Shown: positions 5,264-63,082 of the stretch, piece after piece
Numbering within the stretch: position 1 is the first letter of the stretch
Layout of the letters: each line of letters starts with the position of its first letter
Assembly: GCA_963821585.1 (NCBI GenBank)
Contig: CAWGEI010000005.1
Coordinates: 646,603 to 710,602, forward strand
Origin: an uncultured Acidobacteriota bacterium
GTDB lineage: Bacteria > Acidobacteriota > Thermoanaerobaculia > Gp7-AA8
DNA: 64,000 nt
Direction: 5' to 3'
Translations under genes and position numbers: made by a program
The notes under the pieces: generated by a model
What the model was told of the DNA's origin: nothing
Seen by the model: only the letters and a program-made list of their open reading frames with translations
Database searches by the model: none

Positions 5264-6063
5264 GCCTTCCAGTACTTCCGCATTCGCGCCAACCAGGCGT
5301 CCGGCTTCTCCGCGTACACCAGCGCGGCGATCGCCTCCGCCTCCGCCACGAGCTCCGCCTGGCGCTCGTCGATCTTCTTCGCCACCGCGGGGAGCTCACC
5401 GAGAATCCCGCGCAGCACGTGCAGATCGTGATGCTCTCCGAGAGCGTGCGACAGCGTCGACAGCACCTCCGCGTACGGCTTCATCAGCTCCGGCCACACG
5501 GGACGCAGAAGCTGCGCGTGATACCAGTGCTCCTTCACCCGCTTCCGCCACTCGTGCAGGTCCTCCGGCCGCTTCCGTCCCGCGCGATACGCACGCACCA
5601 GCCCGTCCGCGATCGTGTCGAACGAATCTTCGAACACTGGCCACATCCCCAGCCGCCCCTGCGCGACCACCAGCTGATCGACGACATTCGCGATCACCGG
5701 CTCGAGCGGCGGGTGCTCCTTCCTCTGCGCGGCCAGGACCTTCTGCGCGCGCCGCTGCACAGCCCGTGGGAGCGCCAGCTTCTCCAGCGCCTCGGCCATC
5801 GCATCCGCGTCCCGCGCCGCCGCCAGGTCGCGTCCCGCGTCCCGGAACCAGGCATTCTCGTGCGCGAACTGGTCGCCGAGGGGCTTGCGGACGAGGCGGA
5901 TCAGCGCGCGCGTCTCCTTGAACCGCTTCCGCGCCTCGTGGACCCGCTTCTCCGCGGACAGCGACCCATCCACCAGCGTGTCCCGCGCCCGGACGATCTG
6001 CTCGTCCATGATGCGCAGAATGGCCGCGGGTAAAGTTTCTGTGCGCTCGATCGAGTAAGCCAT
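5242..6063 (-). CDS. CHAD domain-containing protein
   Basis: All-helical protein with repeated H..RK..K motifs (VHEARKRFKETRALIRLVR, HEWRKRVKEHWYHAQLL) characteristic of CHAD. Adjacent to ppk1. Confidence 0.7.
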   Translation of the reverse strand: MAYSIERTETLPAAILRIMDEQIVRARDTLVDGSLSAEKRVHEARKRFKETRALIRLVRKPLGDQFAHENAWFRDAGRDLAAARDADAMAEALEKLALPRAVQRRAQKVLAAQRKEHPPLEPVIANVVDQLVVAQGRLGMWPVFEDSFDTIADGLVRAYRAGRKRPEDLHEWRKRVKEHWYHAQLLRPVWPELMKPYAEVLSTLSHALGEHHDLHVLRGILGELPAVAKKIDERQAELVAEAEAIAALVYAEKPDAWLARMRKYWKAWLRTSR

Positions 6064-18886: not shown

Positions 18887-18915
18887 CCGCGCTGTTTCGG
18901 CGATACTTGTCGCAC

Positions 18916-19341
18916 ATGGACAGGACAGCCGAGGTGCTGGTGCGGTTGCGCGAGCAGCGGGCGCGGCTCCAGGGGGAGCTCGCCGGCGTGGAGAGCGCGA
19001 TCGCCGCGCTGGAAGAGACGACGAAAAAGCCGGAGCCGGCTCCCGCGCCGCCGCCTCCTGTTTTCGTGATGCCTGCCCCGCCGCCTCCGGGGCCGTACCA
19101 AGGCGTCGAGTTCTTCGAGGCAGTCGCTCACTATCTGAAGGAAGCGGGGGAACCGAAAGGGGCTGGGGACATCGCCAAGGCCCTGCTTGCCGGAGGCTAT
19201 TTCACCCAATCCGGAAACTTCCAGGCGGTCGTCCGCGCGACGATGAGCAGAGCGATGAACGTGTGGCCTTTCGGGATCCGCGGGAAAGGGGACGGCTTGT
19301 ATTGGTGCGAGCCGGAGCCCGATCCGGACGCGAGCTCGTGA
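18916..19341 (+). CDS. small coiled-coil protein with Pro-rich linker and HARE-HTH/winged-helix-like C-terminal domain
   Basis: MDRTAEVLVRLREQRARLQGELAGVESAIAALEE (coiled coil), a PEPAPAPPPP linker, then FFEAVAHYLKEAGEPKGAGDIAKALLAGGYFTQSGNFQAVVRATMSRA...GDGLYW. This fits the HARE-HTH pattern by eye only. Confidence 0.5.
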   Translation: MDRTAEVLVRLREQRARLQGELAGVESAIAALEETTKKPEPAPAPPPPVFVMPAPPPPGPYQGVEFFEAVAHYLKEAGEPKGAGDIAKALLAGGYFTQSGNFQAVVRATMSRAMNVWPFGIRGKGDGLYWCEPEPDPDASS

Positions 19342-19428
19342 CGCGCGAGGGCAGGTGAGCGCTTGCCGGCCGTAACGGAGTGCCTCGATCGGCCGGCTGC
19401 ACGGGAGATGAGCGCGACGACGTGCTTC

Positions 19429-19869
19429 CGGAGCGTGACCAGACGATTTCGGAGCGCAACGACATGCCCCGGAAGCGGACGGCGTGCCCGCGGAGGGCGA
19501 CAGCACCCTCTAGGAGCGTAACAACACGCCCTTTGAGCGTAACAGCGCGCCTTTTGAACGTGATGTTACGCCTGTGGAGCGTAACGTTACGCCCGCGGAG
19601 CGTAGCGTTACGCCTGAAAGGCGTGTTGTTACGCTCGAAGGGCGTGTTGTTACGCTCAAAAGGTGTGGTGTTACGCTCAAAGAGCGTGTTGTTACGCTCC
19701 GGAGGCATGTCGTTGCGCTCGAAAGGTACGGAATCACGCCCGCGGAGCCTGCACACGTGCCCGGGAAACGTGCGGTTACGCCCGCGGGGCACGGACTCGC
19801 GCCCGATTCGCGTGGAGTTGCGCCCGCCGGCGACGGACTCCCGCCCAAATCGCGCGTGCGCGTCCGCCG
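19429..19869. repeat. array of 21 tandem ~21-bp units with GCGTAAC|GTTACGC core, globally an imperfect dyad centred at 19584/19585
   Basis: Unit starts: 19429, 19450, 19471, 19491, 19512, 19533, 19555, 19575, 19596, 19619, 19640, 19661, 19682, 19701, 19723, 19743, 19764, 19785, 19807, 19828, 19849. Left units are GAGCGTAACAACACGCC type and right units are its reverse complement. Five track ORFs in different frames run through it. Confidence 0.9.
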
Positions 19870-19942
19870 CGGCGGAATCGATGCTGTCGTCGTGGCCGTG
19901 AAGTGATGGAAAGATCAGAGGACAGGCACGCCGGTGCGATTT

Positions 19943-20131
19943 CTGTCGCCCGCTACGCGGGCTCATTTTCTTACTCCGCCACGCGTCCCCCGGCTGAAGC
20001 CGGGGTCTATTGTCTGTTGCCGCCTACGGCGGCTCCGTGTGCCCGCGTAGCGGGCTGCAGAAAATAGACCCCGGCTTCAGCCGGGGAACCGGGAGCGCCG
20101 CGCAGAACGAGCCCCGCGTAGCGGGCGACAG
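19943..20131. repeat. A-type element, copy A2
   Basis: Same termini and inner blocks as A1 (CTGTCGCCCGCTACGCGGGCTC ... GAGCCCCGCGTAGCGGGCGACAG). Confidence 0.9.
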
Positions 20132-20138
20132 GCCTCCC

Positions 20139-20199: not shown

Positions 20200-21057
20200 A
20201 TGAAGCGTTTCGCCCGAATTGTCTCTACGCTCATCCTCTCTCTCTCGCTCGCCGCCTGCGGCGGCCGCGAGCAGCAGCAGACCCGTTCCAGCAACAAGCC
20301 CCTGACCATCAAAGGCTCGGACACGATGGTCATCCTCGCGCAGCGTCTGGCGGAGGAGTACATGACGAGGCCATCCCGGGCGAGGTCGTGCAGGTGAACG
20401 GGGGGGGCAGCGGTACGGGGATCGCCGCGCTGATCAACGGCAGCATCGATCTGGCGCATGGCCTCGCGTCCGATGAAGGACGACGAGAGGGCGCAGGCGG
20501 CCAAGAGCCGTGGCGCGGAGGTCATGGAGCATGCCGTCGCGCTGGACGGCCTGGCGTTTTCGTCAACGAGAACCAACCCGATGCAGCACCTCACCATCGC
20601 CCAGCTTCGGGACATTTTCCAGGGCAAGACGAAGAACTGGAGCGAGATCGGCGGGTCCGAACGCGCAGATCATGCTCTACGGCCGCGAGAGCTCGTCGGG
20701 CACGTTCGACTACTTCCGCGAGCACGTGCTGGAGAAGGGCGATTTCGCGCCGCAGCGTGCAGACGCTGCAGGGCACGGCGGCGATCATCAACGCCATCGG
20801 CCATGACAAGAACGGCATCGGCTACGGCGGCATCGCCTACGCGAAGGACGTGCGGCCGCTGGCGATCGCCGGCCGAGGGTGCGCAGCCCATCGCGCCGTG
20901 CGAGGCGACGGTCGCCGACGGCACCTATCCGCTGAGCCGCAAGCTGTTCTTCTACTTCCCGCCAACGCGCCCGAGCGCGTGACGAAGTTCGCGCGTGGGC
21001 GCTGACGCCCGAAGCGCAGGCGCTGGTGACGAAGGTCGGCTATTTCCCGCTGACCAA
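20200..21057 (+). pseudogene. pstS: second pstS, disrupted by about 9 frame shifts (or local sequence errors)
   Basis: Pieces collinear with PstS1 are scattered over track ORFs 20200..20397, 20010..21005, 20458..20982, 20510..20806 and 21026... The pieces are KPLTIKGSDTMVILAQRLAEEYM / VQVNGGGSGTGIAALINGSIDLA / ASRPMKDDE... / NAQIMLYGRESSSGTFDYF / VQTLQGTAAIINAIGHDKNGIGYGG / TVADGTYPLSRKLFFY / VTKVGYFPL. There is no in-frame stop before pstC. Confidence 0.8.
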
Positions 21058-62897: not shown

Positions 62898-63082
62898 CTG
62901 TCGCCTGCTACGCAGGCTCGTTGTTGGGTCGCACTGCGTTCCCACGGCTGAAGCCGTGGGCTATTTCCTGCCGCCCGCTTCGCGGGCTTTCTGCTGCCGT
63001 AGGCAGCTTCAGGCAATAGACCCCGGCTTCAGCCGGGGACGGGTGCGTCGCAGGAGATCCAGCCCGCGTCAGCGGGCGACAG
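62898..63082. repeat. A-type element, copy A6
   Basis: CTGTCGCCTGCTACGCAGGCTC ... CCAGCCCGCGTCAGCGGGCGACAG with diverged but collinear inner blocks (compensatory changes within the small hairpins). Confidence 0.85.

Follow-up and report, generated by a model that had tools for sequence, protein, structure and literature searches.

A 21-bp-period convergent repeat array beside a small predicted winged-helix gene in Acidobacteriota: a candidate protein-binding array

We examined a 64,000-nucleotide stretch of DNA from an uncultured acidobacterium (Thermoanaerobaculia, Gp7-AA8; contig CAWGEI010000005.1 of assembly GCA_963821585.1, positions 646,603 to 710,602), referred to here at its full length as the window. 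It carries a tandem array of ~460 bp (19407-19868), which comprises 22 head-to-tail units when printed in a 21-nucleotide register and lies directly 3' of a gene for a 141-amino-acid protein (18916-19341, + strand). At the level of sequence, comparison with related loci shows that gene and array are co-inherited as one ~1-kb unit in unrelated contexts, and that the period, a CGNAAC core and the convergent orientation of two arms are kept while unit number and other positions turn over fast. The array is probably the cis-acting half of a two-part cassette, and is a candidate binding array of the adjacent protein. We favour this docking-array reading because the same pairing of gene and array is present at all 12 loci of our comparison set, which consists of the loci where the homologue is at least 37% identical and the DNA after the gene is readable.

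Arrangements in which a DNA-binding protein is paired with its cognate array of repeats are already known. What is unusual here is the exact 21-bp period, the very high number of units, the convergent arms, the autonomy of the pair and its apparent mobility. We found no description of such a protein-plus-array module in the literature, and neither protein nor array matches a family in Pfam, NCBIfam or Rfam, in agreement with a preliminary description of this DNA, made from its letters alone, that knew of no described element of this sequence.

Several measures agree on the period. Tandem Repeats Finder (TRF) reported arrays of period 21, 42 and 63 between 19514 and 19854, a repeat search returned a 9-copy family within the array at a spacing of 21 nucleotides, and autocorrelation over 19429-19869 gave 0.612, 0.581 and 0.537 at lags of 21, 42 and 63, with 0.345 for the next best lag. 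Over all 420-nucleotide segments of the 64 kb, lag-21 identity averages 0.327 (standard deviation 0.035), peaks at 0.626 at 19406 and never exceeds 0.45 outside the array. Of the motif GAGCGYAAC, the window has 10 copies where 1.7 would be expected, and 9 of the 10 are inside the array; the lag-21 scan and this count both indicate a single array in 64 kb. The preliminary description had recognised a tandem ~21-bp array, atypical of terminators or MITEs, and had given it 21 units at 19429-19869, one fewer than we count; the block is indeed no terminator and, within the window, not multi-copy. It had also noted a GC content lower than that of the surroundings, and we find 0.56 in the array core (19500-19720) versus 0.67 in the whole window.

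Each unit is an imperfect palindrome of the form GGAGCGTAAC-G-TTACGCYCC, of which gene-proximal units keep the left half and distal units the right half. In the gene-proximal arm (19407-19574), 8 units of 21 nucleotides present the motif GAGCG(T/C)(A/G)AC on the + strand; in the distal arm (19617-19868), the motif of the 12 units is on the - strand, and the + strand reads GTTACGCTC. Between them, two central units (19575-19616, assigned to no strand) contain a perfect 14-mer palindrome, GCGTAACGTTACGC (19579-19592), and a copy with one mismatch, GCGTAGCGTTACGC (19600-19613), and it is here that unit orientation switches. The copies of GAGCGYAAC in the array are distributed in the same way: four are on the + strand (19452, 19514, 19535 and 19577, spanning 19452-19585) and five on the - strand (19628-19720). 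The outer seven units of the distal arm are decayed and GC-rich (...GCGCCCG), as had been reported, and the register slips by one nucleotide between the units at 19491 and 19512, the only slip in this array. Units are contiguous, and the lack of unique spacers between them rules out a CRISPR array.

The symmetry of the array is looser than that of a simple hairpin. The repeat search returned inverted repeats of 81-114 nucleotides, 71-80% complementary, centred between 19585.5 and 19617. Several centres 10.5 nucleotides apart have similar scores in the complementarity profile, so the dyad centre is broad and a single sharp one is ruled out. Unit variants are mirrored across the arms, both of which, counting outwards from the centre, have GCGCAAC at the sixth unit and GCGTGAY at the seventh, and ungapped arm-to-arm complementarity is only 0.50-0.61. 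The conserved feature is a pair of arms whose units face opposite ways, rather than a hairpin with exact pairing. The giant dyad of the preliminary description therefore holds as to the opposite orientation of the arms and fails as to precise pairing, given the 50-61% ungapped complementarity and the differing arms of a related array (L121, below). Its central perfect palindrome is confirmed, and the string that it placed at 19575-19595 really lies at 19576-19596. Segment 19512-19532, said to pair with 19637-19657 at 20 of 21 positions, does so at only 7 of 21 and finds its true partner at 19639-19659 (19 of 21). Segments 19450-19470 and 19701-19722 are complementary as claimed, at 18 of 21 positions and not about 19.

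Related loci

The 12 loci of the comparison set (designated here by L numbers) all have a 21-nucleotide-period array directly 3' of the gene, beginning no more than ~70 nucleotides after the stop codon or overlapping it. This is the co-occurrence with homologues of the 18916-19341 gene that the preliminary description had proposed to look for, and it is found in unrelated contexts. Array size ranges from 18 to more than 37 units, or 0.4-0.8 kb. Units resembling those of the window are seen in L123 and L132 (72% and 81% protein identity), where the proximal arm reaches the contig end. L121 (74%) has ~30 units at 1150-1780, namely 16 copies of GGAGCGTGACGACGAGCCCGC followed by units of the GGCGCGTTGTTACGCTC type, and L133 (56%) has at least 37 units of CGCAACT / AGTTGCG. 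At lower identity, units are of the GAGCGTAAC type in L057, which is the same locus as L126 (41%; array 985-1590), of the GACGCAAC type in L124 and L127, which we enter together (44% and 41%; array 4441-5007 in L127), and of the ACGCAAC type in L128 (43%; reaching the contig end). They are GCGCAACTG / CAGTTGCGC in L136 (44%; array 5416-5920), ACGCATCGATCC, also given as GCATCGAT, in L137 (46%; proximal arm only), CGGAACTAGTTCCG, also given as GGAACTAGTTCC, in L122 (47%; reaching the contig end), and GTGAACCAAACTTTGGTCC, also given as GTGAACCAAAC, in L138 (37%; array ~5380-5800).

L057 was also recovered independently, by a DNA pattern scan together with blastn. The scan, which looked in genome contigs for GTTACGC three times at a spacing of 21 nucleotides, gave at least 119 matches; among those listed, nearly all are unrelated 21-nucleotide tandem repeats, many of them coding, and only L057 is related. 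Four distant homologues (L129, L130, L131 and L139; 30-40% identity) have no array, and the array is therefore a trait of a subfamily. Three further loci are uninformative, as their contigs end less than 100 nucleotides from the gene; the window's own genome supplies one of the three, in the form of a short-read contig.

All arrays share the core CGNAAC, in the forms CGTAAC, CGCAAC, CGGAAC, GTGAAC and CGCATC, and the flanks around this core and the type of palindrome vary by lineage. Both arms are clearly readable in seven loci (the window, L121, L057, L127, L128, L133 and L136), and in all seven the orientation is the same and convergent: the proximal-arm motif is on the strand of the gene, and the distal-arm motif is on the opposite strand. 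A family-wide 21-bp period, CGNAAC core and convergent orientation is the signature that protein recognition on duplex DNA, and not base pairing, would be expected to leave. The two arms of L121 use different unit variants, one proximal type having been amplified to ~16 copies. In the same locus, a one-nucleotide deletion removes the stop codon of the small gene, and the called protein is extended to 180 amino acids.

The limits of the conserved unit are sharp. In an alignment of the window with L121, L123, L132 and L125, homology starts ~25 nucleotides before the ATG and the sequence upstream is unalignable; homology among close relatives is confined to the interval from -25 through the array end. 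That end lies at ~19868, up to which the window and L121 can be aligned and beyond which they diverge. The 65-nucleotide spacer from the stop codon to the first clear unit (19342-19406, + strand) contains an inverted repeat, GCCGGCCG (19365-19372) / CGGCCGGC (19390-19397), and degenerate unit-like sequence. It is better conserved among close relatives than the array units are, with alignment columns 45-115 nearly invariant in the five sequences. The outer units of the proximal arm are orthologous to those of L121, L123 and L132. Searched by eye for terminal inverted repeats and target-site duplications, the ends of the cassette yielded nothing convincing.

Flanking genes differ in every locus examined. 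They include TIR and pentapeptide genes at L123, SymE/XRE at L124, an MqsA-like antitoxin at L132, NPCBM at L133, a methyltransferase at L134, DinB on contig P0008 and beta-helix/AprE at L136. Only in the window is the cassette followed by pst genes, and this neighbourhood is therefore incidental. It follows that a Pho box or a link to PhoB, which the preliminary description had entertained, is rejected, and we infer, with low certainty, that the array is not a regulator of the pst operon.

It could be argued that the array is a functionless, slippage-prone satellite that hitch-hikes with the gene. Unit number does vary (18 to more than 37), inner units are homogenised where outer ones are decayed, and non-motif positions change at a roughly neutral rate (36% of columns versus 31% at third positions of the gene). 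A neutral satellite, however, would be expected to be lost or to drift in period, whereas period, CGNAAC core, arm orientation and position after the gene are kept from 100% down to 37% protein identity and across contexts, and so far no homologue of at least 37% identity has been found to be array-less. We consider such a satellite extremely improbable.

Gene-bearing contigs from metagenomes and short-read (Logan) assemblies end in or just before the array in L120, L122, L123, L124, L125, L132 and L137. Assemblies thus break systematically at the array, and short-read ones probably contain too few members of the family.

Coding potential and predicted folding

The repeat length of 21 nucleotides equals seven codons, and one reading frame through the array is persistently open. 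The minus-strand frame that reads GAG CGY AAC (Glu-Arg-Asn, ERN) is free of stops over 476-783 nucleotides in all six complete arrays, namely those of the window (minus strand 19202-19966), L121 (28 of 30 units), L057, L127, L133 and L136. Other frames without stops inherent to the unit usually have 1-3 sporadic stops, and the matching + frame has 0-6. A gene convergent with the small one might thus run through the array and encode a heptad-repeat protein, its repeats reading ERNxxxx where they fall in the distal arm and xxVVTLx where they fall in the proximal one; the Joint Genome Institute (JGI) annotation calls a 156-amino-acid minus-strand open reading frame (ORF) in L121, and coding palindromic repeats are on record as PARCELs (PMC2996958).

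The pattern of substitution argues otherwise. In the proximal units of four close relatives, 9/25, 10/25 and 8/25 columns are variable by codon phase, whereas the neighbouring gene has 21, 28 and 44 of 141 variable by codon position. Between the distal arms of the window and L121, read in the open minus frame, 9/54 first, 20/53 second and 14/53 third positions vary, so that second positions are the most variable, and replacement codons outnumber synonymous ones (24 versus 8) between these two loci, whose neighbouring proteins are 74% identical. By codon-position entropy, third positions are not in excess in any of the arrays. The repeat register is shifted by one-nucleotide indels, both in L133 and in the outer arm of the window array, so that the peptide changes frame against the repeat, and away from the DNA motif the predicted peptides are unrelated across lineages (NTPF, PMIP, DPIPS, YGVK). 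The ORF overlaps the 3' end of the small gene by 42-225 nucleotides, and neither its start nor its end is conserved. GC content at third positions (GC3) of the array frame is 0.63-0.85, compared with ~0.9 in real genes of the window.

Database searches agree. The 254-amino-acid minus-strand ORF of the window had no match among 5.8 billion protein sequences, itself included, in a collection that does contain the neighbouring protein from the same assembly; three array ORFs had no match in Pfam or NCBIfam, and the NCBI assembly record behind L136 has no gene called across its array. Because substitutions are without third-codon-position bias, the array evidently encodes no conserved protein, and we regard a minus-strand repeat protein as very improbable. 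The preliminary description had called the block non-coding and had named a conserved ORF with third-position-biased substitutions as what would speak against this; no such bias was found in orthologous units. ORFs called across the arrays by some annotation pipelines are probably spurious.

PARCELs and the array are alike in that both are tandem repeats whose DNA has dyad symmetry and is readable as an ORF. PARCEL units, however, correspond to a 25-residue (75-nucleotide) protein motif recognised by a protein-level hidden Markov model, and often come with membrane-targeting sequences, whereas the array has a 21-nucleotide unit and neither protein-level conservation nor a coding pattern of substitution. 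The phase-neutral variation, the 8 synonymous versus 24 replacement codons and the absence of any protein homologue in the searches above rule out a PARCEL or other coding tandem repeat.

A further alternative is that the array works as a nucleic-acid structure instead of as a series of duplex sites. As RNA, this could be a long, imperfect 3' hairpin of the small gene's transcript that serves as an RNase III substrate, a stabiliser, a terminator or an RNA partner of the protein; as DNA, a cruciform or single-strand hairpin used in recombination or mobility of the cassette. A giant hairpin is indeed predicted, with a minimum free energy of -302.7 kcal/mol as RNA (z -15.3) and -165.8 as DNA (z -10.7), and long-range pairs are predicted in 5/5 other complete arrays. 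Unit variants mirror each other between the arms, and some of the changes between the window and L121 are present in both arms, by eye and not quantified. The array sits between the stop codon and the first intrinsic-terminator-like hairpins of the + strand, which are found only at 19948 and 19988. Z-alpha-type winged helices, which bind structured nucleic acids, are among the fold matches of the small protein, and short-read contigs often break within the array.

Folding as such, however, says little, since any two inverted arms of similar units will fold, and the z-scores are uninformative on selection. The low ungapped complementarity given above argues against a selected helix, as does the amplification in L121, where the distal arm has no change to match it; by hand count, the positions between motifs match between arms only ~50-67% of the time. 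A helix would need neither a strict 21-nucleotide period nor a conserved core of 6-9 nucleotides, both of which fit recognition by a protein. Both strands of the six arrays fold about equally and have similar G-U counts, with no consistent asymmetry in energy or in G-U pairs. A strand-specific RNA fold is thus unsupported, and this equality argues for a feature of the DNA over one of a particular RNA strand. Rfam 15 has no match to the array at gathering score, the sole match being a sub-threshold plant microRNA precursor model (82.6 bits versus a threshold of 268), a generic artefact of long hairpins. We therefore consider a structural role of the folded strand, as RNA or DNA, unlikely.

The small protein and a candidate docking array

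The gene adjacent to the array encodes a coiled-coil helix, a proline-rich linker and a predicted winged helix. An AlphaFold2 (AF2) model built on a ten-sequence alignment has a mean predicted local distance difference test (pLDDT) score of 75, and places an N-terminal helix at residues 3-36, the linker at 38-60 (disordered at 38-53) and a winged helix at 64-131, with helices at 64-77, 83-92 and 102-111 and a beta-hairpin at 121-131. The best Foldseek matches are all winged-helix DNA binders, of which the Rok DNA-binding domain (5zuz) is the top one at E 0.13, which is below significance (probability 0.92, template modelling (TM) scores 0.39/0.51, 16% identity). Further matches, none significant, are the helix-turn-helix (HTH) domain of RNA polymerase delta, Z-alpha domains and DtxR/Fur. 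A sequence profile search of the PDB matched the N-terminus to designed coiled coils and did not find Rok. Pfam-A and NCBIfam, including their HTH and HARE-HTH models, assign no family to the window protein (Pfam E<=0.01), and scanning ten members of the family gave only weak, single-member HTH matches (FaeA 0.0016, HTH_20 0.038, HTH_11 0.1).

A first protein search found ten homologues, and a profile search of 1.84 billion cluster representatives found 946 clusters at E<=1e-3, 64 at <=1e-10 and 15 at <=1e-30. Homologues conserve the helix predicted to be that of recognition, F..(A/S)(V/T).R(T/A)M(L/M).R. At the upstream edge of the module (18900-18915, + strand), an invariant GCGATACT (18900-18907), with a -10-like GATACT, lies 9 nucleotides before the ATG. 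As a Shine-Dalgarno sequence is lacking, the transcript may be leaderless or nearly so, and we infer that the element is a promoter; a scan with the sigma-70 consensus returned nothing at 18900-18915.

If the array is a docking array, the C-terminal winged helix would read the CGNAAC half-site and the N-terminal coiled coil would form dimers or higher oligomers. Since 21 bp is two turns of B-DNA, successive sites would face the same side of the helix, and proteins bound next to one another could make contact and cooperatively cover the array over its full 0.4-0.8 kb (18 to more than 37 units), with the central full palindromes as the likeliest nucleation sites. The convergent arms could in turn be bridged by coiled-coil-linked DNA-binding domains on their flexible linkers, in the manner of H-NS or Rok, to give a compact nucleoprotein body.

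An oligomerisation domain followed by a flexible linker and then a DNA-binding domain is the succession in the bridging proteins H-NS, MvaT, Lsr2 and Rok (PMC6936261), and Rok's DNA-binding domain is a winged helix (PMC6212790). The order predicted for the cassette protein (coiled coil, linker, winged helix) is that of such bridgers, and this Rok-like domain order, together with the top fold match, makes bridging of two duplex segments plausible. The resemblance has limits: Rok of Bacillus subtilis binds AT-rich DNA genome-wide through the minor groove, with a preference for AACTA/TACTA, whereas the cassette protein would have one dedicated GC-rich array (56-70% GC) with a CGNAAC core, and the fold match is at E 0.13.

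Partition systems offer another comparison. In F sopB-sopC, R1 ParR-parC and TubR-tubC, the gene of a small DNA-binding protein lies beside a tandem array of its presumed sites, whose phasing suggests cooperative coating; TubR is a winged-helix protein. In theta plasmids (P1 repA-incA, F repE-incC), iterons are repeats of ~19-22 bp, about two helical turns apart, that are bound by winged-helix proteins, and one iteron block lies downstream of the rep gene. Rep initiators are ~30 kDa and have two winged-helix domains.

The preliminary description had likened the array to iterons or parC-type centromeres, and the array could accordingly be either a partition centromere (parC, sopC or tubC type) or, within an integrated element resembling a plasmid, a block of iterons. 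Like partition centromeres, the cassette joins the gene of a small, here predicted, DNA-binding protein to a phased tandem array; the order of gene and array recalls sopB-sopC and P1 repA-incA, and the cassette occurs in variable regions beside toxin-antitoxin and defence-type genes. It differs from partition centromeres, however, in being chromosomal and lacking an NTPase partner, in its unit (21 bp versus 11-12 or 43 bp), in the layout of its units (18 to more than 37) as two convergent arms instead of blocks of direct repeats, and in a protein without detectable homology to ParR, SopB or TubR.

No ParA, ParM or TubZ NTPase or Rep gene was found, by gene calls and Pfam matches, in the window or in ten related loci with gene calls. 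For the protein of the window, the recorded contig is 1.97 Mb long, and tblastn with the protein gave no matches in 72,556 plasmids or 50,697 phages, nor has it a match in viral contigs. Compared with iterons, the array has many more units, inverted arms and no origin features, and the protein, at 141 amino acids, combines one predicted winged helix with a coiled coil. There is no AT-rich unwinding region; with a single predicted winged helix, a lowest GC of 0.55 in the region and no Rep-type Pfam match, an iteron origin or copy-control block is not supported. A partition or plasmid-derived element is quite improbable, and the class assignment of the preliminary description is not upheld.

Repetitive extragenic palindromes (REP) and bacterial interspersed mosaic elements (BIME) are, like the array, intergenic imperfect palindromes. 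They and comparable elements in Amycolatopsis are at most ~130 bp long, occur at many loci per genome and have no known tie to an adjacent gene, whereas the array occurs once in 64 kb, extends over 0.4-0.8 kb and is always attached to one gene family. The Amycolatopsis elements are ~130-bp intergenic palindromes at many loci per genome, in which three copies of TGATTGAAGGCGTAACTCGCG are followed by 3-4 copies of the reverse complement, GTTACGCCTTCAATCACGCGA; they often begin right after a stop codon and, like the window array, have a 21-nucleotide unit and two inverted arms. We saw them at L005, L006, L015, L018, L020, L023-L025, L027, L034, L035, L038, L088, L089, L091, L103, L107, L110, L113 and L119. 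The same principle may be at work in them as in the cassette. An acidobacterial sequence, L106:546-800 (Pyrinomonadaceae metagenome-assembled genome, JBJMGQ010000035), has a 21-nucleotide-period dyad array of GTTACGCCACGACGAAATGGC and its complement.

Certain points weigh against the array being a set of duplex binding sites. It can be folded into one giant hairpin with unit variants mirrored between the arms, and it is possibly inside the small gene's transcript, as it lies 3' of the gene and before the first terminator-like hairpins. The stop-free minus frame that persists in six complete arrays is not explained by a binding-array model. Slips of one nucleotide, in the window (19491/19512), in L133 (at 2383) and in L137 (at 5587), break strict helical phasing. 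The link between protein and array is drawn from co-inheritance and a predicted fold whose best Foldseek E-value is 0.13, and the neighbouring genes yield no cellular function.

With low certainty, the most likely cellular role of the docking array is that of a structural or topological mark on the chromosome, such as a roadblock, an insulator or an anchoring point. It may also be a titration sink for the protein, and the cassette could also be a selfish element. More tentatively, we propose that cassettes of this kind form an autonomous class, in which the protein and its phased, convergent CGNAAC sites would build a folded chromosomal nucleoprotein body and move as a ~1-kb unit; we see this as possible without thinking it probable. 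No recombinase, NTPase or initiator is recognisable in the cassette, a sharp-edged element that nevertheless changes context between close relatives. Such a class would add a new type of element, architectural or mobile, to the chromosomes of Thermoanaerobaculia-type Acidobacteriota. Should the protein indeed coat the array beside it, a 15-kDa protein and a repeat block would make up a minimal two-part system for a large, sequence-addressed nucleoprotein structure, and the lineage-specific pairs of protein and array would be a ready-made specificity series around the CGNAAC core. Knowledge of the family also aids the annotation of metagenome-assembled genomes from soil.

Surrounding sequence

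Upstream of the 141-amino-acid gene, the window has a DUF3224 gene (- strand) and an AraC/DUF6597 regulator (+ strand). Downstream of the array, a REP-like hairpin block (19940-20135) precedes pstS, pstC, pstA and pstB. The block consists of nested inverted repeats resembling REP or miniature inverted-repeat transposable elements (MITE), in which 19943-19961 and 20113-20131 are 100% complementary and 19985-20033 and 20041-20089 are 84% complementary. Its terminator-like hairpins are at 19948-19962 and 19988-20005 (+ strand) and 20086-20069 (- strand). Because the block is absent from L121, it is not part of the cassette.

Between 20200 and 22114, pstS and pstC switch their high-GC3 frame internally (at ~20400-20900 and ~21880), and each extends over several ORFs. 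The cause of these frameshifts is either decay of the phosphate transporter into pseudogenes or assembly errors of the indel type. Much further downstream, a match to the Acido-Lenti-1 small RNA, a taxonomic hint that agrees with the taxonomy of the related loci in pointing to Thermoanaerobaculia-type Acidobacteriota, lies at 62941-62988, with 44.7 bits versus a gathering score of 37.

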